Shown here one piece after another: positions 5,776 to 38,481 of a stretch of 64,000 nucleotides of DNA. The position numbers and the translations under genes are program-made. Under the pieces are notes generated by a model that saw only the letters and a program-made list of their open reading frames with translations, was not told where the DNA came from and made no database searches. The first letter of the stretch is position 1. Each line of letters begins with the position of its first letter. Source of the DNA: an uncultured Candidatus Saccharibacteria bacterium (GTDB taxonomy: Bacteria > Patescibacteriota > Minisyncoccia > Phycocordibacterales > UBA9973); assembly GCA_964456475.1 (NCBI GenBank), contig CAYVZI010000006.1, forward strand, positions 7,074 to 71,073, written 5' to 3'.

Positions 5776-5810
5776 TTAGGGTTTAGGGATTAGGGGTAAG
5801 GGATTAGAAA
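5776..5810 (+). repeat. Telomere-like G-rich tract TTAGGGTTTAGGGATTAGGGGTAAGGGATTAG. It is a G-quadruplex motif: GGG-N4-GGG-N4-GGGG-N3-GGG.
   Basis: Read directly. Four G3+ runs with 3-4 nt loops in the 60-bp rpoB-rpoC spacer. Confidence 0.7.
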
Positions 5811-5829: not shown

Positions 5830-8800
5830 CTATTCCTTATTAGCTTCATTAGTTTCTCGACCTGTGTACCCTTTCTGCAAATCAACATCGAGTGCAAGTC
5901 CTCGGAGGTAATTCAACATAACTGAGAATGATGCTGGTGTGTTTGGAACTGGGATTTCTTCGCCCTTGATGATCGCGTCGAATGCCTGTGAACGTCCCAT
6001 GATATCGTCAGATTTTACAGTGAGCATTTCGCGAAGTGTGTGCGATGCACCGTAACCTTCGAGAGCCCAGACTTCCATTTCTCCAAAACGCTGACCTCCA
6101 CCTTGAGCTTTACCTCCGAGTGGCTGTTGCGTGATGAGACTGTACGGACCAATCGAACGCATGTGAATCTTGTCTTCCACCATGTGGTGCAGTTTGAGCA
6201 TGTACATGATACCGACAGCTACATCTTGTTCGAATTTGTCTCCAGTACGTCCATCGTAAAGTGGAATAGATCCTGATTCTGGGAATCCAGCTTTGACGAG
6301 TTCTTCCTTGATTTCGAAATCGCGAGCTCCAGCAAATGGAGGTACGACTGCTTGGTAGCCGAGCGTGTTTGCCGCAAGACCCAAGTGCATTTCAAGAATC
6401 TGTCCGAGGTTCATACGAGATGGAACTCCAAGCGGTGTAAGGATCACGTCGACAGGAGTACCGTCCTGCATGAATGGCATTTCTTCTTGTGGAAGAATTG
6501 TTGAGATAACACCCTTGTTTCCGTGACGACCTGCGAGCTTATCACCCACAGACACGTTACGAAGCTGAGCAACTTCGATGACTACTTTCTTGATGATTCC
6601 TGATTCGAGCTGATGACCTTCGGCACGTGAAAAGATCTTCACGCCGATGATGCGTCCACGCTTTCCGTGTTCAAGACGAAGTGATGTGTCTTTCACATCG
6701 CGAGCCTTTTCCGCAAAGATAGATCGGAGCAAGCGCTCTTCTGGAGTAAGTTCTGTTTCGCCCTTTGGTGTGATCTTTCCAACAAGAATATCGTTCTCGC
6801 GGATTTCTGCACCGATGCGAATGATACCTTCTTCGTCGAGGTCTTTGAGTTTGACTTCACCGACGTTTGGAATATCGCGTGTAGTGATTTCTGGTCCGAG
6901 CTTTGTATCACGCACGACACAGATATATTCTTCCACATGAATCGATGTGAAGACTGAGTCTTTTACAAGACGGTCAGAAAGAATAATCGCATCTTCGTAG
7001 TTGCGTCCTGCCCATGACATAAATGCTACAAGCACGTTTTGTCCAAGCGCGATTTGTCCGTTGTCAGAAGATGACATGTCGGCAAGGAGTTGACCTTTCT
7101 TCACTTCCTGTCCTACAGAGACCACTGGTCGCTGATGGAATGAAGTAAAGTTGTTTGTACGTGAGAAGTTGATGAGTGTGTATTCCTTTGTTCCAGATTT
7201 GCCCTTGACCACGACTCGCTTTCCATCCATGTGAGTGACTGTTCCTGCTTCTTCAGCAAGTACGAGACGTCCAGAAAATGGAGCAGCCTTTTCTTCGATA
7301 CCGGTAGAGACGAGCGGAGCGTTTGGCACGAGACATGGAGTCGCCTGCTTCTGCATGTTTGATCCCATGAGTGCACGGTTCGCGTCATTGTGTTCAAGGA
7401 AAGGCACCATCGCAGTCGCGATTGAGAATGCCTGATATGGAACAACGTCGATGAAGTCGATTTCGTCGCGAGAGATGATACCTGGTTCTGTCTTGATACG
7501 AGCTTCAACTTCTGCATCGCGAAGCACACCCTTTTCATCTACTGGGTTTGCCGCGTGAGCGATGTTGTACTTTTCTTCTTCAAGCGCGTTTAGGTACACG
7601 ATTTCATTCGTGACTTTTCCTTTGACCACTTTCACGTATGGAGTTTCGATGATTCCGAAATCATTGATGCGTGCATATATAGAGAGGTGCAAGATAAGAC
7701 CGATGTTCGGACCTTCAGGAGTGTGGATCGGACAGACGCGACCGTAGTGAGAAGTGTGCACGTCACGCACTTCAAGACCTGCGCGTTCGCGTGTGAGACC
7801 GCCGGGTCCAAGAGCCGAAAGAATTCGGATGTGCTCGATTTCAGCCAAGAGGTTTTCCTGGTTCATAAATTGCGAGAGCTGGTTCGTGGTGAAGAATTCC
7901 TTGATACGAGCCTGCATCGGACGCTGGTTGATGATCTGGATCGGAAGTGCCGCCGCTGTATCTATAGTAGACATACGGTCTTGCACGTTACGCTTGATCT
8001 GAGTCATACCCACGCGGATTTTCTGCGCGAGAAGTTCTCCCACATAACGGACGCGACGCTGTGCAAGGTGGTCGATGTCGTCAGCCTTTGCTCCAGGTGT
8101 GTGCGTGAGTTCTACGATGTATTTTACAACTTGAATGAGGTCATCTTTTGAAATAGTTCGACGCTCAAGTTCCTTTTCGCCCATGTTGAGGTCGAAGCGC
8201 TTGTTGAATCGGAAACGTCCGACCGGTGAAAGGTCGTAGCGGTCTTTTGAAAAGAGTGCGGTGATAAATTCGCGTGCATTGTCTGCAGTCGCGAGATCAC
8301 CGTCACGAAGACGCTTGTACATTTCGATTGTTGCATCGCCAGGAGTCTTGGCAGTGTCTTTTGCAAGACATGTTGCAATGACGTTTGCTACGCGTTCGTC
8401 GTCGGCAAATGCAGCCTTGATTTCATCGTCAGTAGCCATTCCCATAGCACGAAGAAGAGACGTAATTGGGAATTTACGTTTTTTGTCGATACGCACGTAG
8501 ATCACGCCGTCAGCTTCAGCATCGATTTCAATCCAAACTCCGCGAGCTGGAATGATTTTTGCACCGAAATACATCTTGCCTTTGAGTTCGTTTTCTGTGA
8601 AGAAGATACCGAACGATCGTGCAAGCTGCGCGACGATAACGCGTTCAACACCGTTGATGATGAACGTACCGTGATTGGTCATGACTGGAATATCAGAAAG
8701 GAAGATTTCCTGTTCCTTTGCGACGCCACCGGCAAGCTTGTTCACAAGCTTCACGTTCACCTTAAGCGGTGCTTCGTAAGAAAGCTTGTTTTGCTTTGCA

Positions 8801-9111
8801 TGGAATTCATCACACTTCGGCTCGCCAAGCGAAAACGAAGTAAACTCAAGCTCGAATTTCTTGCCTGAGTAATCAGAAATAGGAGAAAATTCCTTAAAAA
8901 TTTCTCCGATGCCATTTTCGACCAAGTCTTTGAACGATTTGATTTGCATTTCCAGCAAATCAGGAAACTCTGCGAGTGATGCTTTGTACTTTTGGAAGTA
9001 CTTTTTTGGGCGGGGCCCGTTGGCATGTATCGACATATCGTTATTTTTAGAACACCCATATATAGTGCATTTCTTTGTTGCTTCGCTCGTTTGTTCCCGC
9101 AATGTACCCAA
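5830..9111 (-). CDS. rpoB: DNA-directed RNA polymerase subunit beta
   Basis: 1093 aa. Conserved beta-subunit blocks (GEMEVWALEGYGA, NMQRQAVPL-like region). Confidence 0.95.
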   Translation of the reverse strand: MGTLREQTSEATKKCTIYGCSKNNDMSIHANGPRPKKYFQKYKASLAEFPDLLEMQIKSFKDLVENGIGEIFKEFSPISDYSGKKFELEFTSFSLGEPKCDEFHAKQNKLSYEAPLKVNVKLVNKLAGGVAKEQEIFLSDIPVMTNHGTFIINGVERVIVAQLARSFGIFFTENELKGKMYFGAKIIPARGVWIEIDAEADGVIYVRIDKKRKFPITSLLRAMGMATDDEIKAAFADDERVANVIATCLAKDTAKTPGDATIEMYKRLRDGDLATADNAREFITALFSKDRYDLSPVGRFRFNKRFDLNMGEKELERRTISKDDLIQVVKYIVELTHTPGAKADDIDHLAQRRVRYVGELLAQKIRVGMTQIKRNVQDRMSTIDTAAALPIQIINQRPMQARIKEFFTTNQLSQFMNQENLLAEIEHIRILSALGPGGLTRERAGLEVRDVHTSHYGRVCPIHTPEGPNIGLILHLSIYARINDFGIIETPYVKVVKGKVTNEIVYLNALEEEKYNIAHAANPVDEKGVLRDAEVEARIKTEPGIISRDEIDFIDVVPYQAFSIATAMVPFLEHNDANRALMGSNMQKQATPCLVPNAPLVSTGIEEKAAPFSGRLVLAEEAGTVTHMDGKRVVVKGKSGTKEYTLINFSRTNNFTSFHQRPVVSVGQEVKKGQLLADMSSSDNGQIALGQNVLVAFMSWAGRNYEDAIILSDRLVKDSVFTSIHVEEYICVVRDTKLGPEITTRDIPNVGEVKLKDLDEEGIIRIGAEIRENDILVGKITPKGETELTPEERLLRSIFAEKARDVKDTSLRLEHGKRGRIIGVKIFSRAEGHQLESGIIKKVVIEVAQLRNVSVGDKLAGRHGNKGVISTILPQEEMPFMQDGTPVDVILTPLGVPSRMNLGQILEMHLGLAANTLGYQAVVPPFAGARDFEIKEELVKAGFPESGSIPLYDGRTGDKFEQDVAVGIMYMLKLHHMVEDKIHMRSIGPYSLITQQPLGGKAQGGGQRFGEMEVWALEGYGASHTLREMLTVKSDDIMGRSQAFDAIIKGEEIPVPNTPASFSVMLNYLRGLALDVDLQKGYTGRETNEANKE

Positions 9112-9400
9112 TGTACATTTTGGTCACAAGCCTCGCTCGCGCCTCGAACTGCATCTATCTATGTGTATTCTTTTTTATGGTTTCCAAAATAACAGATAAA
9201 GAAAGCAAAACCCATCTCTTTCGTTAGAGTTTGCTTTATCCGTCTTATATTTTTTTGACCGACAGCTTGGGGAGCTGTGTTTAGCTGCTAAAGGCTACGA
9301 ATAACAACTAAAACTCAATCAGTCCGTAGTGCAAATAGTCTACTTATTTTTCACCTTGTGTCAAGTGAAAAACGGGGCATTCTTCCCCTCCGCGTATCGT

Positions 9401-9484
9401 GTCATCCCGGACTTGATCCGGGATCCATTTTTTGGGCCTTTTTCCCCTCCTTTTCAGGTCATTCCCGGCCTGGCCGGGAAATCC
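9401..9484 (+). repeat. Two family-1 palindromic elements in tandem orientation: 9401-9428 GTCATCCCGGACTTGATCCGGGATCCAT and 9458-9484 GTCATTCCCGGCCTGGCCGGGAAATCC.
   Basis: Perfect 7-8 bp inverted arms. They generate the spurious ORF 9329-9535 (VIPDLIRDP / VIPGLAGKS). Confidence 0.8.
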
Positions 9485-9497
9485 AAGCCCCGAGTCC

Positions 9498-9532
9498 AAA
9501 CGGCTCATTTCCGCCCACTTGAGCCGTTTAAC
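9498..9532 (+). repeat. Family-2 hairpin element AAACGGCTCATTTCCGCCCACTTGAGCCGTTTAAC
   Basis: 10-bp stem AAACGGCTCA/TGAGCCGTTT with 12-nt loop. A near-identical copy is at 13523-13557 and a disrupted copy at 14834-14896. Confidence 0.8.
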
Positions 9533-9588
9533 TAAAAAGCCCTTAACCACTTTTCTGCTTTACTTTTTATCGCTGAATTTCTTTTCAA

Positions 9589-9620
9589 AGCTGACTATTT
9601 GGGACGAAGTTGGAACCCAT
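9589..9620 (+). repeat. Island direct repeat copy 1: AAGCTGACTATTTGGGACGAAGTTGGAACCC
   Basis: About 30-bp motif CAAGCTGnnnnnyTGGGACrAwGTTrGAAy. Also at 10508-10540 and 11275-11306, one copy at each gene boundary of the island. Confidence 0.7.
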
Positions 9621-9782
9621 TTGATTTAAAAGCCTCGTAATTCCAAGTTATCGAGATTCTACGGAGAATGTTGACATTCTATTTTATGAATGGTTAAGTA
9701 TACCTGAATCGAACGGCAACTGCCCAGTACCATTCCGTAAATGAGTGTCGTAAACTCGAACTTTCATTAAAAAATTAATAGA

Positions 9783-10454
9783 ATGGAAACAACAGCAAGT
9801 CTCGCGCAATTCCATAAACTTATGGGTCTTATTTTAAGTAAGTACCCTGAACTTGAAGGAAAGCTGGACAAACAAATGTTACAATTACTCATCAAAGACG
9901 ACTCGCGTCTCGCTCATGAGTTCACATTGTTTATTAACAATGGAGGAATGCACAACCTAAGTCACGTAATTAATTGTGACAAAACCCCAGAACTATTCCA
10001 TCCTGATGATGGTTATTATCTTAAGGGTCATCAAAAACATAGTCCGTTTGCCTGGAACCCAAATCAAATTGAGTTAATCCCTCTTTTTTCATTCTGGGAG
10101 GGATTAAATAATCAACAGGAATTTCAGAGTAACAGGATGCGGTATGAGTTTTTGAAAAAATACGATGCATGTAATGCAAACATTTCAGACTACCTCTACG
10201 AACACCCCTACTTGTTTCCAAGTAAATGGGATAATCATCTCCTTGTCTTTTTAGGTACGCAATATGGCAGGCTGTATGGAGGAAAAAAGAACAATGGTTG
10301 TTGGGTTAGATGTATTGGCAAAGATTATGATGGCAGGTTACCAGGGAGAGCACTGGCATACTTTAAAAATGTAACCTCACACTCTTTTAAATATCCCCTA
10401 GGGAATAAATTTAAAAATAATGATGTGATGGTTCCTGTTTTCAAAAAAATATAA
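9783..10454 (+). CDS. Hypothetical protein, island cargo, no recognisable domain
   Basis: 223-aa ORF, AT-rich. Followed by a hairpin terminator (CAGTGTGATC..GATCACACTG+T-run, 10459-10500). Confidence 0.5.
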   Translation: METTASLAQFHKLMGLILSKYPELEGKLDKQMLQLLIKDDSRLAHEFTLFINNGGMHNLSHVINCDKTPELFHPDDGYYLKGHQKHSPFAWNPNQIELIPLFSFWEGLNNQQEFQSNRMRYEFLKKYDACNANISDYLYEHPYLFPSKWDNHLLVFLGTQYGRLYGGKKNNGCWVRCIGKDYDGRLPGRALAYFKNVTSHSFKYPLGNKFKNNDVMVPVFKKI

Positions 10455-10507
10455 AACACCAAGACAAGCCAAACAGTGTGATCTCATTTGATCACACTGT
10501 TTTTATT

Positions 10508-10540
10508 TTAAATTCACAAGCTGACCGTCTGGGACGATGT
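10508..10540 (+). repeat. Island direct repeat copy 2: CAAGCTGACCGTCTGGGACGATGTTGGAACC
   Basis: See 9589-9620. Lies between convergent gene ends. Confidence 0.7.
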
Positions 10541-10570
10541 TGGAACCTTTTTAAACCAAAGACCTACGAC

Positions 10571-11212
10571 CTAACTCTGTTTACTCTTGTTTTCATCAGC
10601 CTTTTTATTAAACCTTTCTATTACATCACGAACAACATCTTCAGAGAACAAAGAACGCATATCCACTATATATCTATAGTCCTCTTTAATATACTCAGTT
10701 CCCTTATAGTTTTCTATATAAACTTCGACTCTCTCTCTTAGTAATTTTTTAATAACGCTCTCTGGCGCCGAAAAGAATCGCTGCTCATCCAAATATTTTT
10801 CTTCTTGAATAAGAGCATCTTCAGATAAAATCGTCGGATCTGTAACCCTTAATTCTATACCTCCAGGAATTCTATAAACTGGGATAACTTCGAAGCGCTC
10901 TACTTTCTTTATATTCAAAGTAAATTTCGGACGTTTGTGTCTTTTTAACATCGAGTAAGTTAGTGTCCAATTATCCCCATCCCATGCTCCATGCTTTTCT
11001 ACAAGATCCTTAAGTATTGGCTCAAGTTTCCAAAAATCCTCTTCCTGAACATAAATGTCTATATCTTGATTCTCTCTTATATATTTTCCATTTATCCCGG
11101 CTACTCCAACACCTCCAAATACCCAGTATTTGATTCCAGCATTAGAGATTGCGGGCAACACGTCTTCAAAAACCGGCCCTAAATGTTCATTGATTTTTTG
11201 TGTAGTTTCCAT
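10571..11212 (-). CDS. Nucleotidyltransferase-fold protein, Lnu(A)/LinA-ANT(2'')-like (NTase_2 family)
   Basis: 213 aa. YWVFGGVGVAGINGKYIRENQDIDIYV matches the Lnu/ANT(2'') hG[GS]...DxD pattern (compare LinA YWLDGGWGVDVL...RDIDI). It is co-directional with the OLD nuclease and 183 bp downstream of it. Confidence 0.6.
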   Translation of the reverse strand: METTQKINEHLGPVFEDVLPAISNAGIKYWVFGGVGVAGINGKYIRENQDIDIYVQEEDFWKLEPILKDLVEKHGAWDGDNWTLTYSMLKRHKRPKFTLNIKKVERFEVIPVYRIPGGIELRVTDPTILSEDALIQEEKYLDEQRFFSAPESVIKKLLRERVEVYIENYKGTEYIKEDYRYIVDMRSLFSEDVVRDVIERFNKKADENKSKQS

Positions 11213-11274
11213 TTTCTGAATAGTGATTTATTTCAAAAATAATACTTCTTAATAACTTAATTATACCAAACTTA

Positions 11275-11306
11275 CAAGCTGTGCAGTTTGGGACAAAGTT
11301 AGAATT
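11275..11306 (+). repeat. Island direct repeat copy 3: CAAGCTGTGCAGTTTGGGACAAAGTTAGAAT
   Basis: See 9589-9620. Lies between the OLD gene end and the NTase start. Confidence 0.65.
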
Positions 11307-11394
11307 TTATTTAGCCTATAATCATGTTCTCTTGGTAGCTTTATGCACCTCTGGTATCCCAAAGAATTAATTAAGGTTTCTTCATTTTAATCAG

Positions 11395-13338
11395 TTAAAC
11401 TTTTTCTTTCGCTGCAAGAACTTTTAATGTTTCGTTGACCTTATTAATATACGTATAATAGGTATCAGCTATATTTTCTATCGTCAAATTTGTGAGCAAA
11501 GCATCTTTTAATTCACCAATAAGTGCTTCCCCCTCAATCTGAGTAATTGAATTTCTTTTATACCAACCTCGGACGCTTTCAATACGGCCTTTTGCATCAT
11601 TAATATCAGCAGCTAAAAATTCTGGTTTTGAATTTTTATCAGTTGTATTTTTCAATTGTTGCAAGAAATAATTTTCTTCAAAGAAGTCTTCCGCTGTATA
11701 TACAGCGTTGAAACTAGGGTCGAAATCGTGATAGGTGTACCAAAAACCATAGCCTTTATTATTTTCATACTCACGTTTTTTGTCTTTAGCAATGGCATCC
11801 GCATCACTTAATATTAAGCAATTACGATTTCCTGCTTCAAACGCTGGTGTGATGTTTTGTATATGCTTAACACCCTGAGAATGACAGAATCCAAATTTTT
11901 CCAATTCTTTAAAAACTTTCTTTCTTGTAGGAAGAGTTGTTTTAGAGGCTCGAAAAAATAAATCTTTATCTCTCCATCCTTCGAATATAAGATTCCATTC
12001 TTTTAGATTTGAAAATATGGAGTAACCCAGAGATTTATATATAACCTCTTCATCTTGAATGTTTGAATCTCCCACTACTTCAAGTTTTGTAATTTCTTTT
12101 TTCTTTTTCACCAAGTAGTGTCGTGCTATAACTTTCTCGTCGATCATAAAAATCGAATGAGTAGAAAAGAGGACAACATTTGTTTGAGAAATTTTTAAAA
12201 GTTCGTCTCTCAAAAACCTTACTCCTGTTGGATGTAAACTTATCTCCGGTTCATCAATGATCAAAACGGAATTTTGTAGTGTGTTTATGTTGCTTTGAGT
12301 AGAGATAAGAAGCAAAAAAGTAATAAATCTCTTGAATCCGTCACTTCTTTGATTTAATTCATAATTATTGTCGGAATCTTTTACCGTAGCAACTATATCA
12401 GAACCGTCGGTTTTTAATTCAAAAGAAACTTCGGGATACTCCTCCCAAACTTGTTTGAAATACTCAGTATTTTTATCAGCAACCTTTCTGAGAAAATTTG
12501 ATAATCGAGTTTGAGAAATCCCCTTTGCTGTATTAACTTCATTAGCGATTCGTGCATTTTCTATGCCGGCAAGATTAAACATTCTTGCTAAAGGAATACA
12601 GGTTGTGGGGTCACTTATAAAACCATCCAAAGGTATTCTAGAAGGTAGTAAGTAAGATTCGTTGTACTCCCAATATATAACATCAGGTAACCACTCCTCT
12701 ACTTTTTCAATGTGAATATTCCCCAGCGTTTCTTGAATATCCGAGAGATCTTTAACATCCACTAAATAAGCTGGGTCAATAGGATTAAATTCATCTAAAT
12801 TAACAAATTGGTAGCCTGAAAGCTTAAACGTCTCCCCTGACTTCGAGACTACTTCATAGTCTCCGGGGCAAGTATCAGAAACTTTTTTCAAGTTATTTAA
12901 AACTTTGTATTCTTTTCCTAGAACAAAATAGCGTGCACTTCTTTTTTGTGTAAGTAAATCAATATGATAGACCGCCTCAATCCTTGTTTTACAAAAATCT
13001 TCAATATTCAGCCCCTTACCGTTGTGAGAAATAACAGGAACATCCTTTATAAAAAGAAAATTTTCTTTAAAGTCTGCCACAATCTCATCTAAGTCTCCCT
13101 TCTCAAAAGAAAAAATGAATTTTACGTAAGCGACACTAGGAACATCTTCGCTAGATAATACTTCTCGAACATATTTTTTTTCAACTTTCTGCGTTGCGTC
13201 TAGAAGTTTTACAGCTTTTAAAATATTACTCTTACCAGACTCATTTATTCCCACTAAAACACGACAGGTAGGATTAAATTCAACCGCCGCATCTTTTATA
13301 GATAAAAAATTCTTAATTTCGGCTTTTTTAAGCTTCAT
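11395..13338 (-). CDS. OLD-family ATP-dependent endonuclease (ABC-type ATPase + C-terminal Toprim), class-1 OLD or GajA-like
   Basis: 647 aa. Walker A GINESGKSNILKA at the N-terminus. Walker B/D-loop LIIDEPEISLHPTGVRFL. C-terminal Toprim signature IFEGWRDKDLF ... CLILSDADAIAKD (conserved E and DxD). Confidence 0.8.
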   Translation of the reverse strand: MKLKKAEIKNFLSIKDAAVEFNPTCRVLVGINESGKSNILKAVKLLDATQKVEKKYVREVLSSEDVPSVAYVKFIFSFEKGDLDEIVADFKENFLFIKDVPVISHNGKGLNIEDFCKTRIEAVYHIDLLTQKRSARYFVLGKEYKVLNNLKKVSDTCPGDYEVVSKSGETFKLSGYQFVNLDEFNPIDPAYLVDVKDLSDIQETLGNIHIEKVEEWLPDVIYWEYNESYLLPSRIPLDGFISDPTTCIPLARMFNLAGIENARIANEVNTAKGISQTRLSNFLRKVADKNTEYFKQVWEEYPEVSFELKTDGSDIVATVKDSDNNYELNQRSDGFKRFITFLLLISTQSNINTLQNSVLIIDEPEISLHPTGVRFLRDELLKISQTNVVLFSTHSIFMIDEKVIARHYLVKKKKEITKLEVVGDSNIQDEEVIYKSLGYSIFSNLKEWNLIFEGWRDKDLFFRASKTTLPTRKKVFKELEKFGFCHSQGVKHIQNITPAFEAGNRNCLILSDADAIAKDKKREYENNKGYGFWYTYHDFDPSFNAVYTAEDFFEENYFLQQLKNTTDKNSKPEFLAADINDAKGRIESVRGWYKRNSITQIEGEALIGELKDALLTNLTIENIADTYYTYINKVNETLKVLAAKEKV

Positions 13339-13522
13339 GCTGTTAAAAGTAGCATTTATTGATGAGGGTGTCTACAGCATCCAAAGGATCAATTTTGATC
13401 AAAAAAGTTAAAATATTTCTATAGGAAAAATGGGGTCAGGTACCATTCTTGAATTCGAACTTGATTGACACTCTAGCACCCCAAGCTTACTCCTCCCCTC
13501 CCAAAACGCAAATCCCAAACCC

Positions 13523-13557
13523 AAACGGCTCATTTCCGCCCATTTGAGCCGTTTGAC
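13523..13557 (+). repeat. Family-2 hairpin element AAACGGCTCATTTCCGCCCATTTGAGCCGTTTGAC
   Basis: Direct copy of 9498-9532. The two bracket the 9.5-13.5 kb island. Confidence 0.8.
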
Positions 13558-13680
13558 TACTTGACAATATATGAAAATGTTATAAGGTTTGCAAAAGACT
13601 AAATAAACAGCAAAGCGTCTAAGGAATTGGATTTTTTGCTGTTTATTTAGTTTTCACCATTTAAAAAATAATGTTAATTT

Positions 13681-14394
13681 ATGGGCAAATTGATCCGCAC
13701 CCAGGTCGTTTACGAACACAAGCCTGGTAACTTAAAACAGTCGGTTAAGCTTCGGCTCCCAATCATCATTCACTCCAGCAAAGCTGGCCCTGTAATTATT
13801 ATCAATTATCCGGGGTACAACGGAGACATTGATGGGTACAACATGAAGTACGCTGTTATGGCAACGCGCATGAGCGAACAAATTGGCACCGTGATCCGTA
13901 TTGGTAATCACCATCATTCAAACACCAATTACCAGGAAACAGTGCAGGATGATCTGCGTGCAATCGTTACGCATGCCTTAGAAAACGCAAAAGAGATATG
14001 CGGACACGAAAATCCTCATATTTACATAACTGCATTTTCTGCTGGTGCTTCTGCTGCCGCAGCTATCGCTCATGAGTTTCCTCAGGTAACAAAACTCCTG
14101 CTCATATCCCCCTCATTTGATGCGGGAGAAAGTGCAATACGGAGCGGCCTTGAAAAATACACCGGCGAAATACATATCCTGGCAGGAGCAAATGATGATG
14201 TTGTAGGACCAGAAGTAGCACCGCTTATGAATGGGATGGTAAAGCTAACTGCTTCACAAATGGTAATACTTCCAAAATGCGACCATCAGTTGCGTGGACG
14301 CACTAACGGATTGTATTTAAGCAACGCACCAGGCTGGGCGTTCTTAGGAAAGAAATTCCCCACTACCGACGACGGCATTGTGCTGTACGAGTAG
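13681..14394 (+). CDS. Alpha/beta-hydrolase fold protein (esterase/dienelactone-hydrolase-like)
   Basis: 237 aa. Nucleophile-elbow-like ITAFSAGAS, acid GANDD, C-terminal CDHQL histidine. Hairpin terminator at 14421-14452. Confidence 0.55.
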   Translation: MGKLIRTQVVYEHKPGNLKQSVKLRLPIIIHSSKAGPVIIINYPGYNGDIDGYNMKYAVMATRMSEQIGTVIRIGNHHHSNTNYQETVQDDLRAIVTHALENAKEICGHENPHIYITAFSAGASAAAAIAHEFPQVTKLLLISPSFDAGESAIRSGLEKYTGEIHILAGANDDVVGPEVAPLMNGMVKLTASQMVILPKCDHQLRGRTNGLYLSNAPGWAFLGKKFPTTDDGIVLYE

Positions 14395-14466
14395 TAAACA
14401 CTGTTTGCAAAAAAAATTCACGAGCCAAGAAATGGTTTTACCATTTCTTGGCTCATTTTATTTCTA

Positions 14467-15108
14467 CTAAATCTTAGTATACAAAACCCCTTTCCCCGTC
14501 TTGCCCGTTTGTTTAATTTTCCCCTCCTTCTCAAGAATCGAAAGATACCGCGTCGCTGTCGCGTCAGACACATGCAACAGTTTCTCAACGTCATCATTCG
14601 TCACGCTTGTTCGCTTCGCAAACAAACCCATAACTTTATCCAGCTTTTTCCTTTTCCTAAATTGAATTACACTTTGCGCCTTCACCAAAAGTTCCCTCAT
14701 CCCACTGCGCGGAGCAACTTGAACCGACGGAGGCACCGTGCCCGATTCTACTTTTGCAGAATTTGGGGAAGCCTCCGTCGGCTTCTGCAATTCTGGTTTT
14801 ACGGTCTCAGCAATCGACTCAGCCACAGGTGATAACGGCTCATTTCCGCCCACTGGGCCCGATCCCACTTCAGTGGGATTTAGGGTTTGAGCCGTTGTAC
14901 CCGATTCTACTTCTGCAGAATTTAAGGTTGGTTCCGGTACGGCTTCTACAGGAGCTGGAGTTGGTTCGATTGGAGCTTCTACAGGAGCAGGAGTCTCCAC
15001 CACAGGAGTCACAGTCTCGTCAGCAACAACAGGCTCAACTGGAGTCTCAATTGGAACCGTTTCTACAATAGGAGTTACCTCATCCGCCATATGCAAATAG
15101 TATATCAA
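14467..15108 (-). CDS. Pro/Val/Glu-rich low-complexity protein with a C-terminal winged-helix DNA-binding domain. It contains an internal ~50-bp direct duplication and an interrupted family-2 hairpin element.
   Basis: 213 aa. C-terminus VTNDDVEKLLHVSDATATRYLSILEKEGKIKQTGKTGKGVLY (wHTH). N-terminal PVE repeats. Family-2 copy at 14834-14896, read in-frame. Confidence 0.5.
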   Translation of the reverse strand: MIYYLHMADEVTPIVETVPIETPVEPVVADETVTPVVETPAPVEAPIEPTPAPVEAVPEPTLNSAEVESGTTAQTLNPTEVGSGPVGGNEPLSPVAESIAETVKPELQKPTEASPNSAKVESGTVPPSVQVAPRSGMRELLVKAQSVIQFRKRKKLDKVMGLFAKRTSVTNDDVEKLLHVSDATATRYLSILEKEGKIKQTGKTGKGVLYTKI

Positions 15109-15226
15109 AAAGGCTTATATTTGGTCTTTTTAACGGTACTTGACTTTAGTACTTAAAAGTAGTATAATATATAAGAAGATTGTTAACTCTGTGCTTACAA
15201 ACCAAGGGCACATTAAAAATTGAATT

Positions 15227-15775
15227 ATGAAGAAAATACTTTTTATTGCCTCGATTGTAGCTTCGGCTCTCGGGATGACATCATGCAACAACGATGAAAT
15301 CAAAAACGTAGGGCGCCCTTCCCCGATGCCATTCAATCATGGAATTGAACAGGCCGCACCAAAACCTGAACCACCGAAAGATACTATCCTCCGCAACGTA
15401 CCGCTCACAGAGCAGCAATTCAGGCGGATAGCCAACTACATCGAAAAACATGGTTTCGTCGTCGACCTTGGCCCAAATCGAATTAAATGTGGCCACCAGG
15501 TGACATTTTTTGATAAGGCAGGCAATCGCCACGCTATGATCTCCTGCAGAACAGGTGCAGATGGGCATCCGGCCATGAAAGGTACAGTGACTTCAATAAG
15601 TGTTTGGGCCTATTACGATGGGAAAAAAGACCAGGAACATTTCTTTGGTTATGATATCCGTCCTTCTGGAGCCAAAACATTTATTACTGAGGATGACTAC
15701 ATGGCCAAGCATATGAAAGCTGTGCAAAAAGGCGTTAATGATTTTTTGAACAAAGTCGAAAAATCCAAGAGCTGA
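15227..15775 (+). CDS. Putative secreted/lipoprotein, hypothetical
   Basis: 182 aa. N-terminus MKKILFIASIVASALGMTSC (signal peptide with Cys). Terminator hairpin at 15800-15832. Confidence 0.5.
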   Translation: MKKILFIASIVASALGMTSCNNDEIKNVGRPSPMPFNHGIEQAAPKPEPPKDTILRNVPLTEQQFRRIANYIEKHGFVVDLGPNRIKCGHQVTFFDKAGNRHAMISCRTGADGHPAMKGTVTSISVWAYYDGKKDQEHFFGYDIRPSGAKTFITEDDYMAKHMKAVQKGVNDFLNKVEKSKS

Positions 15776-15834
15776 TTAATTTCGGCAAAAAATTACAGAC
15801 GTGTTGATTGGAATTTTCCAATCAACACGTTTTT

Positions 15835-16149
15835 TTATTTCCCCTTCCCTGTCTCGATCACAATCGAAAACACAATTTTTTTCTTTGCAACGATATGTTC
15901 CTTCTTTCTTACTTCTGCCTTAAGCGGCAACAGATACGTTTCAGATTTTTTGTCTGGAAAAATCGAAGTATTCCAAGTTGTCTTGCCGAGCGTTACCGTT
16001 ACCGGAATAGATCCCCAACCCTTTTTGAGAGTGGCATACTTTTCTCGTATCTCTTTGGATTTTTTCTTATCAACATAGGCAAAATGCCATCCAGACATTC
16101 CCGGATACAGCACCACTTCTGATTTTATTGAGTACACACCTTTTTTCAT
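15835..16149 (-). CDS. DUF1905-family protein
   Basis: 104 aa. GWGSIPVTVTLGKTTWNTSIFP matches the DUF1905 core. Confidence 0.55.
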   Translation of the reverse strand: MKKGVYSIKSEVVLYPGMSGWHFAYVDKKKSKEIREKYATLKKGWGSIPVTVTLGKTTWNTSIFPDKKSETYLLPLKAEVRKKEHIVAKKKIVFSIVIETGKGK

Positions 16150-16173
16150 TACAGTCTTTAGGGTCTGTAAAGG

Positions 16174-16596
16174 TTATCTCCAAACTGCCACAATCGCTCC
16201 CATTGCCCCCATCGCAATAAGCAACCATCCTGATTCATATAGCCACAAGCCTGTCTTGCGTCCCATCCAAATCACTTCGATTGCTGAAGAAGTTACAAGG
16301 AAGAAAATCCATACAAACACTCCACAAAGCACACCTCCCCACACGCCCGAAATATTCACCGCTGATGAAGAGGATACAATTGTGAACATAACTGAGAGAC
16401 CGAGTGCTGTGACAAAATTGGTAAAGAGATTCCCAATCATCTGAGGAACCATGTCAGAAAGTTTTTCATTGCCAGTCGGTACAACATTAGCAAGCTTCAT
16501 CCAAAGCTTGCCGCCAATCGGACCATGGAACAAAAATCCAATAATAAACGCCACCACTGCTGCCACAAGCACCGCTATAAAATTGATTGAAATCAT
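16174..16596 (-). CDS. DUF1761-family membrane protein
   Basis: 140 aa, 4 TM segments. N-terminus MISINFIAVLVAAVVAFIIGFLFHGPIGGKLW is typical of DUF1761. Confidence 0.55.
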   Translation of the reverse strand: MISINFIAVLVAAVVAFIIGFLFHGPIGGKLWMKLANVVPTGNEKLSDMVPQMIGNLFTNFVTALGLSVMFTIVSSSSAVNISGVWGGVLCGVFVWIFFLVTSSAIEVIWMGRKTGLWLYESGWLLIAMGAMGAIVAVWR

Positions 16597-16706
16597 ATTG
16601 TTTTATTAGAATTCACACAAATGAAATGCACCAAATACGTGGATTCTAACTCTTACTAAATTTATAATTATGATATTGAGTGTACCATTTGGAATGAAAT
16701 AATTGA

Positions 16707-17549
16707 ATGACCAATCACGTCAGCAGATTGACTTATTTGCCAAAAAATTGTATTTTAAACACAACATCTTTAACAAATTTTAATGATGACCACAGCGAGT
16801 ACTGCTCTCTCCCTGCGGTCATCATTAAAAGTAAACATATGAACCTGGCACAATCTCATCGTGACAAAATCGGTGGGGCCCTGAACTTCCTCAAAAGAAG
16901 TAACGAGATTACATCATTCGAAATTGTAGATGATCCACATGATGATTTTTTTATCACATGTACAATTGTATTTACGTATAAACACAAGAAACTAGACGTG
17001 ACCGTGCTTATAGACTTACTGTCGTATGAAACAAGACGGCTCGGCAACATATTTTTTTGCAATCTTATTGAAAGACGCAAAAAAGGTGAGGAAGCAGAGC
17101 TCCGGATGTTTGCGATTCTACGCAGACTCATACAAAATCGAAAATTTGGGATCTGTAGTGTTTTCCGTGCGAGTGAATACCTAGACAACAAAATGAAGGC
17201 CGACTTAGTCTTCTTTGTTGATTGCAGTATTCCCCTCTTTGAGCCTTCGACGAAAGTGGAGCGTCTGATGATATATCTTCAAATAAAGTCTTCTGTAGAA
17301 AAGCAAGACATTCATAAAGTGAGATATCCAAACATTCCCTCTATCGTCATCAACCATGAAATAACAGATAGTACAATCATACAAGCAGTCAAAGAAATAA
17401 TTGAGACGATGTATATCATTTCCAAAGTAGAACCAGCAAAAGAGCTCGTCACACTTTCACTGAAGGATACTGGAAACTATGGGAAATCGACAGATCTACG
17501 ATACCTGAAAAGCGTACTCCAAAGCATGTATCAAAAAATTCACAAATAA
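16707..17549 (+). CDS. Hypothetical protein. The true start may be the internal Met MNLAQSHRDK.
   Basis: 280-aa ORF. Bidirectional terminator hairpin AAAGACCGCACGG-CATA-CCGTGCGGTCTTT at 17602-17633. Confidence 0.4.
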   Translation: MTNHVSRLTYLPKNCILNTTSLTNFNDDHSEYCSLPAVIIKSKHMNLAQSHRDKIGGALNFLKRSNEITSFEIVDDPHDDFFITCTIVFTYKHKKLDVTVLIDLLSYETRRLGNIFFCNLIERRKKGEEAELRMFAILRRLIQNRKFGICSVFRASEYLDNKMKADLVFFVDCSIPLFEPSTKVERLMIYLQIKSSVEKQDIHKVRYPNIPSIVINHEITDSTIIQAVKEIIETMYIISKVEPAKELVTLSLKDTGNYGKSTDLRYLKSVLQSMYQKIHK

Positions 17550-17673
17550 AACTCGGACACAATCCGGGTTTTTTTATTGCCACTATTACAAAGACCGCAC
17601 GGCATAGCCGTGCGGTCTTTGTGTTGGCGTATTAGTATTATCTACTTTCTACTACCTATTTTCTACTTTCTAA

Positions 17674-19446: not shown

Positions 19447-19515
19447 GTCATGCCGGACTACGATCCGGCATCCATTATGAATTTTTCGTGGATCCCGGAT
19501 CAAGTCCAGGATGAC
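19447..19515. repeat. Family-1 palindromic element pair (MITE-like): 19447-19475 GTCATGCCGGACTACGATCCGGCATCCAT and an inverted partner at 19489-19515.
   Basis: Two hairpins in opposite orientation, 13 bp apart, in the trmD/Nudix intergenic region. Confidence 0.8.
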
Positions 19516-19520
19516 ACAGT

Positions 19521-20668: not shown

Positions 20669-20700
20669 TAGGGTTTAGGATTAAGGGATAAGGGAGGAGT
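20669..20700 (+). repeat. Telomere-like G-rich tract TAGGGTTTAGGATTAAGGGATAAGGGAGG
   Basis: Read directly, 5' of the ABC ATPase start. Followed by a perfect 16-bp-arm palindrome at 20703-20740 (AATACGCTATCGGCCA..TGGCCGATAGCGTATT). Confidence 0.6.
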
Positions 20701-20706
20701 AATACG

Positions 20707-27256: not shown

Positions 27257-27372
27257 AGTTTGAATTTTATCATTCAGGATACAAAAGAGCGAGCGACTTT
27301 CGTCGCTCGCTCTTTTGTTGTATTTGTATAACTTTATGAACTTTACAAACTTTATGAACTTTCAACTTGCCG

Positions 27373-29328: not shown

Positions 29329-30040
29329 ACATCTTGAGGTTTAACCTCAAGATGTGATAGTATTAACCATATGAGAAAAGCACCCCTGGTAGAGGAACAT
29401 TTTTACCATATATACAATCGAGGAGTAGATAAGCGTAAAGTCTTTGAAAGTAAAAAAGATTATTCGCGTTTTTTGTATAACCTATACCTTTCAAATTCTA
29501 CACAAGCTTTTAACTTGTCCGATCTAATCAAATATCAAGAATCTAAAGAATTGATATTTTCCCTGCCTCGCGAAGATGAATTGGTTTCAATTCATGCATA
29601 CAGTTTAATGCCGAACCATTTTCATTTGATTATTAGTCAAAAAAAGGAAAAAGGTATCAGTCTTTTCATGCAAAAGCTCACTACTGCATACACTATGTAT
29701 TTTAATAAGAAGAGCAATCGTTCAGGTTCTCTTTTTCAAGGAACTTTCAAATCTAAACATATCGCATCTGATGATTATCTTCGTTACCTATTTGCATACG
29801 TACATGCAAATTCCTTCTCAACAATCGAGGGAGAGATATCTGAAAAAAATATTGAAAAAGTTCTCAATTATGAATATTCAAGCATTCTCGATTATCAAGA
29901 CATTATTCGACCAGAAAATTCAATCGTGAGAACAGATTTTTTTGAAAAAGAATTTACGAATAAAGATGGTCTTATTGAACAATTAAAAGCATGGCTCTCT
30001 TACCATCAACATCCTGAGGTTAAACCTCAAGATATCCAAA
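29329..30040 (+). mobile_element. IS200/IS605-like or REP-associated HUH tyrosine transposase element: transposase gene flanked by imperfect palindromic hairpins
   Basis: 5' hairpin CACATCTTGAGGTT-AA-ACCTCAAGATGTG (29329-29357). Related 3' hairpin CCTGAGGTT-AA-ACCTCAAGA (30016-30037). Confidence 0.6.
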
Positions 30041-30063
30041 ATAATGGTATAGTAGGCGTATGA
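29371..30063 (+). CDS. Y1 HUH transposase (IS200-like TnpA / RAYT)
   Basis: 230 aa. HFYHIYNRG, HUH motif MPNHFHLI, GSLFQGTFKSKHI. Stop overlaps the RNase R start (ATGA). Confidence 0.7.
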   Translation: MRKAPLVEEHFYHIYNRGVDKRKVFESKKDYSRFLYNLYLSNSTQAFNLSDLIKYQESKELIFSLPREDELVSIHAYSLMPNHFHLIISQKKEKGISLFMQKLTTAYTMYFNKKSNRSGSLFQGTFKSKHIASDDYLRYLFAYVHANSFSTIEGEISEKNIEKVLNYEYSSILDYQDIIRPENSIVRTDFFEKEFTNKDGLIEQLKAWLSYHQHPEVKPQDIQNNGIVGV

Positions 30064-32126
30064 AAAAGCCTCACCGAAAGGGTCAGTCTCCAAAACGAGC
30101 CTCTGAACCAAAGAAATCCACTCCCCGCACCTCATTCAACAGAATGACCCTGGGAGCAGAAAAAAAGCCTAACGAGGGTAAATACATCGAAGGTACATTC
30201 CTCGTAATTGGACGCGGGGGTGGAGTCGTCAAATGTGCCGAATACAAAGACGGTATCCGCGTCTATGAAGAAAACGTAAACACGGCTCTTCATGGCGACG
30301 AAGTCAAAGTCAAAATCATTCAAAAGCGTCGCGAGGAAACCGTTGGCGCGATCAAAGAAATCGTACTTAGAACAAAAACCGATTTTACCGGCGTACTCGT
30401 CGAACAAAAAGGCAAATTCTTTTTGAAAGCATCTGATCCAAAAATGTATGCGCAAATTGAAGTAGACAAAAAAGGTCTCAGTTCCGCAATCGTCGGCAAG
30501 CGAGTATATGTGGCGATGAATCCATGGAACGATGCAAAGACTACCCCTACAGGCAAGGTCATCAAAGTGCTTGGAGTGCCAGGTGAACACGAAACCGAAA
30601 TGGAGGCCATCGCACTTGAACGCGGATTTACCGAAAACTTTCCCCAGGAAGTTCTTGCTGAAGCGAAGGCAATCAATGTTCGAGGAATCACACCAGACGA
30701 CCTCAAAGACCGCCGCGATTTCCGCAAGATTGTCACCTTCACCATCGACCCATATGATGCAAAAGACTTCGACGACGCCATCTCAGTAGAAAAGATGCCA
30801 AACGGCGACACAGAAATCGGGATTCATATCGCCGATGTTTCGCATTACGTACAACTCAAAACCGAACTCGATCGCGAAGCGCTTGAGCGCGGTACTTCCG
30901 TGTATCTCGTCGACCGTACAATCCCTATGCTTCCTCGAACACTCTCAGACGATCTCTGTTCCCTCCTTCCCCATGTCGATCGACTCACAATGAGTGCGGT
31001 TATCACATTTGGTGCTGATGGCACGGAAAAAGGTGCATGGTTTGGACCTACAATCATTCACTCAGCCGAGCGCTTCACGTATGAATCTGCACAAGAAGTG
31101 ATTGATGGTGCTTCACACAAATACAAAGACGAGCTCATGACGGCCGCGGGCATCGCGCGCGGCCTAGGCAAGGGTCGTGTCGCCGAAGGTGCATTGGTGC
31201 TTGAACAAGAAGAAGTCAAAGTCCTCATCGACGATCAAGGCCGTCCAACCAAAGTCGTCAAAAAAATCCGCACCGAAAGTCACACGCTCATCGAAGAGCT
31301 TATGCTTCTTGCCAATCGCCGAATCGCCGAATTTCTTGAGCGCGGTGGAAAAGCAAAAAAACCAAAAGGAAATATTCACGAACTCAAAAATGTTGATAGT
31401 GGCGAACACGCAGTCATCTACCGTATCCACGATCAACCAAGCGAAGAAAAAGCCGAAGATCTCGCCTTCTTCATGCGTTCAATCGGTCATCCACTCCCCG
31501 TTCGCAAAGACGGCTCACTCGACCCGAAAGCGATCGTCAAAGTTCTTGAAGGATTTGAAAATGGAGACCTCAAGCAGACAGTGCTCACCTTTGTGATTCG
31601 CAGTATGTCAAAGGCAATATATACGACAAAAAATATCGGTCACTATGGACTACAATTCGATCACTACACGCACTTCACTTCTCCAATTCGTCGCTATCCC
31701 GACCTGGTGATTCATCGCCTTCTTCGCTACGCGCTCGCAGGCAAACCAGCTCCGTCTGAAGCCCGCAAAACATATGAACGCATCGCACGACTTTGTTCAA
31801 TGGCCGAAATGCGCGCCGCCGATGCTGAACGTGAAAGTGTGAAGCTTAAACTTACCGAATACATGGCGACAAAGATCGGCCAGACAATTACCGGTATGAT
31901 TACCGGTGTCACTGAGTGGGGCTTATACGTGCGCGACAAAGAAACGACAGCCGAAGGTCTTGTCGGACTTCGCACAATGACGACCGAATCTTTCACACTC
32001 AATCCAAAACTCGCAACGATGACTGGATCAGTTTCTGGAAAAACATATCGCATTGGTGATACAATAATGGTGAAAGTCGTCAAAGCAGATCCAGAGAGAC
32101 GACAGATCGACTATGAATTAGCGTAA
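30060..32126 (+). CDS. rnr: Ribonuclease R (RNase II/RNB family exoribonuclease, VacB)
   Basis: 688 aa. RNB signature HYGLQFDHYTHFTSPIRRYPDLVIHR. Cold-shock-like N-terminus. C-terminal S1 domain. Confidence 0.85.
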   Translation: MKKPHRKGQSPKRASEPKKSTPRTSFNRMTLGAEKKPNEGKYIEGTFLVIGRGGGVVKCAEYKDGIRVYEENVNTALHGDEVKVKIIQKRREETVGAIKEIVLRTKTDFTGVLVEQKGKFFLKASDPKMYAQIEVDKKGLSSAIVGKRVYVAMNPWNDAKTTPTGKVIKVLGVPGEHETEMEAIALERGFTENFPQEVLAEAKAINVRGITPDDLKDRRDFRKIVTFTIDPYDAKDFDDAISVEKMPNGDTEIGIHIADVSHYVQLKTELDREALERGTSVYLVDRTIPMLPRTLSDDLCSLLPHVDRLTMSAVITFGADGTEKGAWFGPTIIHSAERFTYESAQEVIDGASHKYKDELMTAAGIARGLGKGRVAEGALVLEQEEVKVLIDDQGRPTKVVKKIRTESHTLIEELMLLANRRIAEFLERGGKAKKPKGNIHELKNVDSGEHAVIYRIHDQPSEEKAEDLAFFMRSIGHPLPVRKDGSLDPKAIVKVLEGFENGDLKQTVLTFVIRSMSKAIYTTKNIGHYGLQFDHYTHFTSPIRRYPDLVIHRLLRYALAGKPAPSEARKTYERIARLCSMAEMRAADAERESVKLKLTEYMATKIGQTITGMITGVTEWGLYVRDKETTAEGLVGLRTMTTESFTLNPKLATMTGSVSGKTYRIGDTIMVKVVKADPERRQIDYELA

Positions 32127-38470: not shown

Positions 38471-38481
38471 AACTTGATGAA

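Follow-up and report, generated by a model that had tools for sequence, protein, structure and literature searches.

What is a 30-nt palindrome that flanks a 4-kb island near rpoB and also lies, in frame, within a neighbouring gene? This question is raised by a 64-kb stretch of contig CAYVZI010000006.1 (hereafter the window), which belongs to a member of the Candidate Phyla Radiation (CPR) and whose proteins have their nearest named relatives in Paceibacterota, Nomurabacteria and Minisyncoccia. The first-pass annotation of the window had described near-identical hairpins in the same orientation at 9498 and 13523, together with the same element, split but in frame, inside a winged-helix (WH) gene. 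We recovered all three: the 32-nt pattern AAACGGCTCATTTCCGCCCAYTTGAGCCGTTT had exact matches on the + strand at 9498-9529 and 13523-13554 (expectation from shuffles, 0), and the two arms of the split copy, ACGGCTCA and TGAGCCGT, were exact at 14835-14895, with 45 nt between them. The reading that we tentatively favour, on sequence comparison, is that the palindrome may be a protein-recognition cis-element of the WH family whose direct copies may also be recombination points for a cassette slot; we infer both the function and the copying mechanism. Throughout, L-numbers denote other loci or contigs compared with the window and P-numbers denote protein entries.

The palindrome within the winged-helix gene

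The palindrome has the form AAACGGCTCA-N12-TGAGCCGTTT, also written AACGGCTCA-N12-TGAGCCGTT, with a core of 30 nt. Two intact copies (A and B) and one split copy (C) make up its total in the 64 kb: a covariance model (CM) built from 39 distinct copies and run with filters off reported no further intact copy in the window, where the 16-mer GGCTCATTTCCGCCCA occurs only three times. Copies A and B are alike over 56 nt (84% identity), the common repeat unit spanning 9479-9534 in A and 13504-13559 in B. All of the hairpins folded far more stably than their shuffles (z-scores of -4.0 to -4.8). The same arrangement was present in the Logan assembly of run SRR12712864, whose independence from the reads behind the window's contig is not known.

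The gene that carries copy C encodes a 207-aa protein in which residues 1-128 are disordered and rich in P, E, V and T, followed by a long helix (130-159) and a winged helix-turn-helix (wHTH; 162-206). The AlphaFold2 (AF2) model reached pLDDT values above 90 for the C-terminal domain, a 30-residue helix and then the wHTH. Structure matches obtained with Foldseek were generic, comprising ArsR/CadC, MarR and ROK repressors as well as the ribosomal protein eS25, and no informative family for the protein was found in PDB, NCBIfam or Pfam. The family is large, with 745 clusters at 50% identity (E<=1e-10), and its recognition helix, HVSDATATRYL, was invariant across 14 aligned sequences.

Read on the coding strand, the palindrome runs ACG GCT CAA / ATG GGC GGA AAT / GAG CCG TT and encodes T-A-Q, M-G-G-N and E-P-L. 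Across WH orthologues, the proline/glutamate-rich N-terminal half was poorly alignable except at this palindrome-encoded motif, TAQx4EPL. The pattern T[AGD]Q-x4-EP[LIFMV] was present in 176 of 262 family representatives with a long N-terminus, always with a spacing of 4 residues, and the remaining representatives were mostly near-variants or shortened gene calls beginning at the ATG of the loop. Four WH-family entries (P0018, P0249, P0260 and P0275) begin at that hairpin-loop ATG, with starts such as MGGNEPL.., MGRNEPL.. and MAGNKPL..; these may be truncated contigs or gene calls, or a hint that translation can start inside the palindrome.

At the DNA level, four orthologues that had been found by protein similarity only (L030, L032, L034 and L037) carried ACGGCTCAA...GAGCCGTT, the unsplit form in orthologues being ACGGCTCAAATGGGCGGAAATGAGCCGT. 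The WH gene of L031 kept the 3′ arm and had GCGACTCAA as its 5′ arm, and that of L035 was degenerate, with one mismatch in the 5′ arm (ACGACTCAA) and the 3′ arm lost. The codons of both arms were almost invariant, synonymous sites included; for the invariant amino acids of the wHTH domain, 2.6-3.1 different codons were used per column, and a single codon was found in just 3 of 35 columns. Distant orthologues at about 46-50% identity (L070 and L071) retained AACGGCTCA and TGAGCC[G/A]TT around the loops AATACCAGGAAA and AACACCAGTAAA. Over the 39 distinct copies, the half-sites ACGGCTCA and TGAGCCGT were invariant or nearly so, as in an operator, and their spacing was always 12 nt, even where the loop differed. 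Conservation thus extends beyond the peptide to the nucleotide palindrome, and the in-gene copy is the ancestral, family-wide one. The first-pass annotation had regarded this copy as an element that landed in the gene and had allowed that the repeats might instead be a conserved coding motif. Because TAQx4EPL is conserved across the WH family, the latter holds for the in-gene copy; the nucleotide palindrome is nevertheless conserved as well.

In the window, copy C is interrupted. Its 5′ arm, AACGGCTCAA (14887-14896), supplies the codons of T-A-Q, and its loop and 3′ arm, GTGGGCGGAAATGAGCCGTT (14834-14853), encode V-G-G-N-E-P-L; between TAQ and VGGNEPL lies M2, one of three 33-nt modules (M1 to M3) in this gene, with the consensus TLN[SP]xxx[EG]SGx and the nucleotide layout ACCCTAAA-stem-loop-stem-TCGGG. 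M2 is the nested palindrome of the first-pass annotation, which had reported a 30-bp insert with its own hairpin: the inner palindrome CCCACT-TC-AGTGGG is present, but the insert is 33 nt long (14854-14886) rather than 30. The internal direct duplication of ~50 bp described for the same gene is likewise real but covers 40 nt at 80% identity (14738-14777 versus 14897-14936), and the M2 insert is a third copy, 63% identical, of this internal repeat. Hence the nesting is structurally genuine, with a diverged copy of a gene-internal 33-nt repeat as its inner unit, which does not belong to the same element family.

The stems of these modules covary. Among 13 modules from five genomes, 94.5% of cells were paired and 5 of 7 pairs showed compensatory changes; 21 double-change cells were counted, compared with 7.8 in shuffles, and slid controls paired at 25-47%. 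Comparison with orthologues lacking the insert, as had been proposed, bore out that close orthologues differ by the presence or absence of this palindromic module at one exact point: it stands directly after CAA in the window, L031, L035 and L037 and is absent there from the closest orthologue, L034, and from most other orthologues. No 33-nt module was found in the window outside the WH gene.

Dispersed copies and a structured RNA region

Copies in other genomes were collected by scanning a genome collection (GTDB) with an 18-mer, which gave 27 loci, and by a stricter scan of metagenomes, which gave 30. In the CPR part of the genome-collection scan, all 19 of 19 matches, distributed over 16 loci, were whole palindromes with unrelated flanks, at 1-3 per genome, and the non-CPR matches (n=11) were all without the second arm; no copy of the 18-mer was found in viral contigs. 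Roughly half of the matches, about 21 of 51, lay inside the WH gene (13 of the 30 metagenome loci), and L030, L031, L034 and L037 had extra copies, co-oriented with this gene, at 0.5-1.3 kb downstream. Other intergenic copies were located between pilB and pilC and upstream of grpE-dnaK, rpsL and rpsS. When the spacer between pilB and pilC was compared for two genomes with PilB and PilC proteins that are 80% and 72% identical, nothing but the hairpin could be aligned.

Furthermore, the palindrome occurred within open reading frames (ORFs) of other families. It lay in frame in a 625-aa protein (L018) and, in the opposite orientation, in an ORF of 540-571 aa, where it is read as TAHFRPFEP. In a family of ~240 aa that is unrelated to WH (the 242-aa family; L015, P0393), the in-frame module was present in 2 of 15 aligned members at different positions, as PTAQMGGNEPLP near the C-terminus of one and as RTAQMGGNGPMAP in a different linker of another, with neither in the 13 others; these copies are sporadic acquisitions. 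Co-directional gene contexts held both orientations (L003 and L007 versus L005, L006 and L027). We detected no consistent target-site duplication, the flanks showing variable palindromic extension and not direct duplications; a possible 7-nt repeat, GCCCCCA in L015, falls within proline codons and was not repeated elsewhere. Extension of the stem across the family was limited to modest extra pairing at two positions outside the 10-bp stem.

Within single genomes, copies shared derived variants in three lineages. The loop variant G is common to window copies A and C, B having A; both L031 copies have GGGGG in place of GGAAA; and in the L024/L057 lineage the gene copy and the copy in the RNA region described below both have T. 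That two copies from a single genome carry an identical derived substitution therefore suggests that the copies were templated on one another or are co-evolving, and the identical copies in intergenic DNA, structured RNA and unrelated proteins suggest that the module is copied around at low copy number. The mobility that had been claimed for the elements is accordingly borne out by a module at new places (the 242-aa family, the 625-aa protein and, flipped, the L041 RNA region), but no recombinase or transposase tied to the element was found.

Directly after the WH gene, and in its orientation, many relatives have a conserved non-coding region of ~640 nt, of which the window contains no copy. 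RNAalifold, applied to eight versions of the region (Table 1), gave 112 pairs, of which 24 showed compensatory changes. Closing helices of 24 bp and 9 bp form part of the structure, and its invariant G-U pairs favour the strand of the WH gene. The hairpin forms the apex of a long arm, where the pairs immediately outside it covary; in the L041 version the arm has no hairpin, and a copy in flipped orientation follows at a distance of about 200 nt. Searches against Rfam returned no match at the gathering score in the window or in 13 loci, and nothing meaningful at E<=1 or E<=10 (three loci and one region); nor was there a tRNA or tmRNA match. The region is thus a candidate for a new large structured RNA of Paceibacteria. 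An identity as RNase P RNA, suspected by eye from strings like GGAAAAAGUCCG and GCAAGGCAAA, was rejected: the motifs are in the wrong order, one 'CR-I' string is the partner strand of the 24-bp closing helix, and Rfam gives no RNase P.

At one locus (L058:551-832), the WH gene is cut to 93 aa, ending just past the hairpin, where the left part of the RNA region is joined to it. Loss of the DNA between two direct copies of the hairpin would give such a junction, or the junction could be an assembly chimera.

The island and the variable locus near rpoB

Copy A is placed between the island ORF at 9783-10454(+) and the promoter-like site (9364-9337) of rpoB, which occupies 5830-9111(-). Copy B sits in the divergent intergenic region between a hydrolase gene and the gene for an OLD-like ATPase; given a promoter-like site at 13594-13566(-), it would lie at the 5′ end of the ATPase transcript. 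A scan for intrinsic terminators, which reported 14420-14456 and 10471-10502, did not include any of the hairpin copies; their loop is 12 nt long and only TTT follows. Beyond copy B come the alpha/beta hydrolase gene, 13681-14394(+), and then the WH gene with copy C. The three island ORFs are separated from one another by a different repeat (Table 1), all copies of which have the same orientation, like cassette boundaries; among the 71 loci compared, it was found in this genome only and nowhere else. Neither the island nor the neighbouring ORFs contained an integrase or recombinase domain, and no DNA homology to the island was detected in L034, L037 or L031.

The closest rpoB relatives, L068 and L069 (89% amino acid identity), have the backbone TrmD-SWIB ... 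rpoB-rpoC in common with the window. Between SWIB and rpoB, these loci contain entirely different genes, no WH gene and no hairpin; therefore, the island is only part of a variable stretch of about 9367-17673. L034 is 81% identical to the window over the 182-aa and WH genes, which are followed by an unrelated 160-aa gene and by copy B with its G-rich tail; past these lie an unrelated 286-aa gene and, where the contig ends, a further hairpin, so that one gene is bracketed by the hairpins at 1986 and 2991. For copy B and the tail, identity to the window reaches 97% in L034 (76 nt) and 89% in L037 (83 nt), against 73-81% for the flanking genes. Copy B with its tail is the one that these two siblings have in common with the window, and copy A is a second copy. 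The cargo genes of these siblings matched no Pfam families that would explain the system.

In L031, the rpoB leader is 83% identical to that of the window over 107 nt, and the order is WH gene, 110-aa gene, one hairpin, family-1 hairpin (a different family, see below) and rpoB promoter, with no island. The 5′ flank of this hairpin, TGTCAAATAGGGGA, resembles that of B, TGTCAAGTAGTCAA, and its 3′ side is collinear with that of A. The empty site that the first-pass annotation had proposed to look for is thus represented by L031 in the form of a single hairpin without an island, but L068 and L069 yield no precise junction. Its suggestion that the hairpins mediate recombination or insertion of the island accords with this single copy and with copy B beside other cargo in L034, but fits less well with an island that is only part of a larger variable stretch.

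Moreover, the WH gene abuts restriction-modification, Abi, helicase or toxin(-antitoxin) genes at L070:5039-9110, L071:3492-9996, L031:2385-3766 and L032:401-3917, where the genes and domains include RE_Bsp6I, DNA methylases, AbiTii, ResIII, SLFN_AlbA_2, Fic and SocA_Panacea; ORFs beside the WH gene in L024 and L011 are helicase- or restriction-like by eye only. From its gene content, the neighbourhood of the WH gene looks like a general defence-island hotspot.

Table 1. Positions of the palindrome copies, modules and neighbouring features in the window, and of the RNA region in other loci
Feature	Position	Strand	Description
Hairpin copy A	9498..9529	-	sense orientation AAACGGCTCAAGTGGGCGGAAATGAGCCGTTT on - strand; exact match; z -4.05; CM 55.9 bits
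Hairpin copy B	13523..13554	-	AAACGGCTCAAATGGGCGGAAATGAGCCGTTT on - strand; exact match; z -4.80; CM 61.6 bits
G-rich tail 3′ of copy B	13477..13524	-	TTGGGTTTGGGATTTGCGTTTTGGGAGGGGAGGAGTAAGCTTGGGGTG; 48 nt
In-gene hairpin copy C, split by module M2	14834..14896	-	composite fold z -4.47
Gene for 207-aa protein, uncharacterised Paceibacteria family	14467..15090	-	weak Pfam FaeA/DUF977 matches; homologues
Module M1	14896..14928	-	TLNSAEVESGT; 33-nt in-frame hairpin, directly 5′ of the T-A-Q arm
Module M2	14854..14886	-	TLNPTEVGSGP, in frame; hairpin ATCCCACT-GA-AGTGGGAT
Module M3	14737..14769	-	SPNSAKVESGT; third 33-nt module copy
Low-GC island	9535..13476	.	4 kb; 34.5% GC versus 42.7% for the whole window; three ORFs
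Island ORF, unknown	9783-10454	+	
Island ORF, nucleotidyltransferase-like	10571-11212	-	
Island ORF, OLD/AAA_15-type ATPase	11395-13338	-	matches anti-phage models
Island-internal repeat	9588..9635, 10518-10565, 11275-11304	+	AAGCTGAC..TYTGGGACRAWGTTRGAACC; 3 matches versus 0.08 expected
Family-1 hairpin (different family)	9400..9428	-	GGATCCCGGATCAAGTCCGGGATGACA; between copy A and the rpoB promoter
~640-nt region, eight versions	L014:121-726, L022:5493-6131, L024:970-1583, L049:9868-10474, L057:8233-8853, L011:2-557, L041:11017-11648, L030:3250-3794		non-coding; in other loci

Other repeats were noted in the window. The family-1 hairpin, GGATCCCGGATCAAGTCCGGGATGACA, has four copies there (1970-1996, 9400-9426, 19490-19516 and 50630-50656), of which three are intergenic (dnaG/rpoC, upstream of rpoB, and trmD/NUDIX) and one is within the pheT ORF at 50325-52169; the copy at 9404-9424 is terminator-like on the + strand, and L031 has this hairpin in the same place relative to the palindrome described here (family 2). 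G-rich telomere-like repeats, TAGGGTTTAGGGATTAGGGG...GGGAGGAGTAA, occupy short intergenic spacers at 5777-5810 (rpoB/rpoC) and 20669-20702 (ABC ATPase/FtsX) and resemble the tail of copy B at 13477-13524. A 9-nt periodic repeat, AACTTTATAAACTTTACGAACT and variants, forms intergenic clusters at 27330-27368, 32144-32291 and 38390-38483. Three tandem 26-nt units, ACTTAGCAAAGTGACTCTTGGAGTAT / ATTCAGCAGAATGACCCTGGGGGTAT, at 33323-33421 straddle the 3′ end of the PGA_cap gene (32296-33336), and a related 21-mer lies at 30134-30154, inside the start of the RNase R gene.

Readings of the palindrome and known systems

Under the reading that we favour, the two half-sites at a fixed 12-bp spacing would form the recognition site of a dimeric protein, most likely the WH protein of the surrounding gene, whose putative binding would bring about autoregulation from inside its own gene and occupy a few further sites. 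New copies would arise by copy-and-paste or gene conversion, with the gene copy or a sister copy as template, and those in frame in disordered linkers would be the tolerated ones. As a by-product, direct copies would serve as recombination points, which would make the DNA beside the WH gene a cassette slot for foreign, often defence-type, genes. That the palindrome is read by something is argued from the conservation of its arms, the fixed spacing, the low copy number and its retention in housekeeping spacers. The WH protein is the obvious candidate reader, linked to the site by association: most WH genes hold a copy, further copies lie a short way downstream of the gene, and the recognition helix is invariant. 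Linker copies, a position that varies in the RNA region, the occurrence of both orientations and the variants shared within genomes point to a copy-and-paste or conversion process, and the direct copies beside the WH gene coincide with the limits of exchangeable cargo.

Several observations weigh against this reading. Site and recognition helix are both invariant and hence offer no testable protein-site covariation. Conservation of the 12-nt loop equals that of the arms within the close group, in non-coding copies too, which a simple operator of two half-sites does not require. Copy A is found about 140 nt upstream of the -35 element of rpoB, yet the closest rpoB relatives have no hairpin there, so it does not represent a conserved operator of rpoB. 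To appear as exact 30-nt copies in linkers of proteins with no relation to one another is the behaviour of a selfish element, unlike the normal origin of binding sites, and the covarying pairs outside the hairpin in the structured RNA point to a folded-RNA role there. As for the evidence on recombination, L031 is one short contig (6.2 kb) that ends before rpoB itself, and L058 could be chimeric, as stated above.

A possible but doubtful alternative is that the palindrome is a purely selfish, low-copy element, like the Rickettsia palindromic elements (RPEs) or repetitive extragenic palindromes (REPs), moved in trans by an enzyme acting on single-stranded hairpins; the WH-gene copy would then be a very old tolerated insertion, and the island would be cargo trapped by a pair of copies, in the manner of a palindrome-associated transposable element (PATE). 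The independent in-frame insertions at two sites of the unrelated 242-aa family, with 13 other aligned orthologues lacking the module, speak for such an element, as do the in-frame copy in the 625-aa protein, the opposite-orientation TAHFRPFEP copy in another ORF, the different position and flipped loop in the L041 RNA region, the occurrence of both orientations in co-directional contexts and the variants common to the copies of one genome. The same-orientation hairpins at the island ends also resemble IS200/IS605 ends. Moreover, the window encodes a Y1_Tnp (IS200-like) / RAYT-like protein at 29371-30063(+), RAYT denoting a REP-associated tyrosine transposase (Pfam, 35 bits; NCBIfam REP_Tyr_transpos, 41 bits, below its cut-off). 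However, this gene is flanked by its own, different palindrome, ATCTTGAGGTTTAACCTCAAGAT, at 29331-29353 and 30011-30033, with no further occurrence in the window or the compared loci, and no Y1 gene was found near any other copy of the 30-nt palindrome; a link between this gene and the 30-nt palindrome accordingly looks doubtful. A neutral old insertion, furthermore, would not keep its arms at synonymous sites over a family of 745 clusters at 50% identity, the copies number 1-3 per genome rather than tens or hundreds, and neither a consistent target-site duplication nor a match in viral contigs was found.

We regard as improbable an RNA-level module, in which the stem-loop would be a protein-binding hairpin of the WH mRNA, of the ~640-nt RNA and of some 5′ leaders, with the WH protein repressing its own mRNA by mimicry, as ribosomal proteins repress theirs. 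In its favour, the hairpin is the apex of an arm in a structured region with 24 compensatory pairs, and the pairs flanking it covary. The strand favoured by the invariant G-U pairs is the one with the orientation of the WH gene, and the close group shows a conserved loop. Furthermore, eS25, which binds RNA, is among the fold matches alongside DNA-binding repressors, and copy B is at the predicted 5′ end of a transcript. The palindrome is, however, found in both orientations (L003 and L007 versus L005, L006 and L027) and its loop is flipped in L041, and the complement of the loop is a different RNA; distant orthologues change the loop and keep the arms, as is more usual where half-sites are recognised in duplex DNA.

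An integration of the integron attC/att type, with the hairpins as attachment sites and the island arriving as a circle that carried one hairpin and recombined with a chromosomal hairpin, is very improbable. It would account for two direct copies flanking the island versus a single copy and no island in L031, for the single gene between two hairpins in L034, for the deletion-type junction in L058 and for the foreign composition of the island. Against this, neither the island nor the genes next to it yielded an integrase or recombinase, attC sites are much longer and less symmetric than the hairpin, a different repeat separates the three island ORFs, and the copies in the pilB-pilC spacer, the protein linkers and the RNA region are left unexplained. 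Scarcely tenable, finally, is a coding motif only, whose intergenic copies would be leftover fragments of WH paralogues and whose symmetry would be incidental: the reverse complement of copy B does read S-Q-T-A-Q-M-G-G-N-E-P-F, close to the orthologue QTAQMGGNEPL, but likeness to the gene ends at the palindrome, with unrelated flanks in all contexts, and the synonymous sites frozen in the arms only, together with the same 30-mer in the non-coding RNA and in housekeeping-operon spacers, already contradict this account.

A broader proposal, which we hold to be unlikely, is that the palindrome, the WH protein and the ~640-nt RNA form one previously unknown Paceibacteria system. In it, a regulator or ribonucleoprotein would read a site in its own coding sequence, and the site would be copied to new loci, recruiting genes to the regulator and making a hairpin-delimited slot in which species with the identical 30-mer exchange foreign (defence) cassettes. 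In Paceibacteria and other CPR bacteria, genomes are tiny, recognisable regulators are few and experimental genetics is almost lacking. Against this background, a widespread uncharacterised WH family with a concrete 30-bp candidate site would offer either a regulator-site pair or a new type of in-frame palindromic element. If the hairpin is truly a recombination point for foreign defence-type genes near core genes such as rpoB, it would provide a simple mechanism of gene flow in organisms thought to rely on DNA uptake. The ~640-nt region, with strong covariation and no Rfam family, is possibly a new large RNA in its own right.

Compared with known systems, the palindrome shares features with several. 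In common with attC and IS200/IS605 (PATE) arrangements, hairpins A and B have the same orientation and bracket 4 kb of promoterless-looking cassettes of foreign composition, and a sibling has a single-copy 'empty' form. attC sites are 57-141 nt long, with R and L boxes, extrahelical bases and an adjacent integron integrase. Here, by contrast, the hairpin is 30 nt and nearly perfectly symmetric, its main location is inside a conserved gene, and no integrase or cognate transposase was found. Unlike a miniature inverted-repeat transposable element (MITE), the whole unit is one stem-loop, and it lacks direct duplications of the flanks. REPs are extragenic and reach hundreds of copies, and their cognate RAYT is flanked by the same REP. 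As with REPs and bacterial interspersed mosaic elements (BIMEs), palindromes of 20-40 nt are combined with further short hairpins into mosaics (two hairpins of other types come after copy A), and the window genome encodes a Y1_Tnp / RAYT-like protein; the differences lie in the very low copy number, the copies inside genes and the different palindrome around the Y1 gene.

A binding site inside the gene of its own binding protein is known from parS within parB/spo0J, and CIRCE (controlling inverted repeat of chaperone expression) is an inverted repeat of fixed spacing. The palindrome resembles these in being conserved in DNA over a wide phylogenetic distance with few copies per genome, one of them inside the gene of a DNA-binding-type protein, and in its conserved half-sites at fixed spacing. 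It differs in that the site here is a predicted one, with a spacing of 12 bp and a spacer that is also conserved among close relatives, and in its exact copies in the linkers of unrelated proteins, which is not a known mode of spread for such sites.

RPEs are not known to have a mobilising enzyme. The palindrome, like RPEs, is found in intergenic DNA, in an RNA region and in frame in unrelated genes; no sequence relation to RPEs was looked for. RPEs are palindromic repeats in intergenic DNA, in an RNA region and in frame in unrelated protein genes, to which they add a peptide segment, and 44 insertions have been described in R. conorii (PMC10969869). RPEs are about 100-150 bp long and have tens of copies, whereas the present module, at 30 nt or 10 codons, is about a fifth of that size and has 1-3 exact copies per genome. 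Moreover, it has one universally retained 'home' copy, which is under nucleotide-level selection in a single gene family, and is identical across genera.

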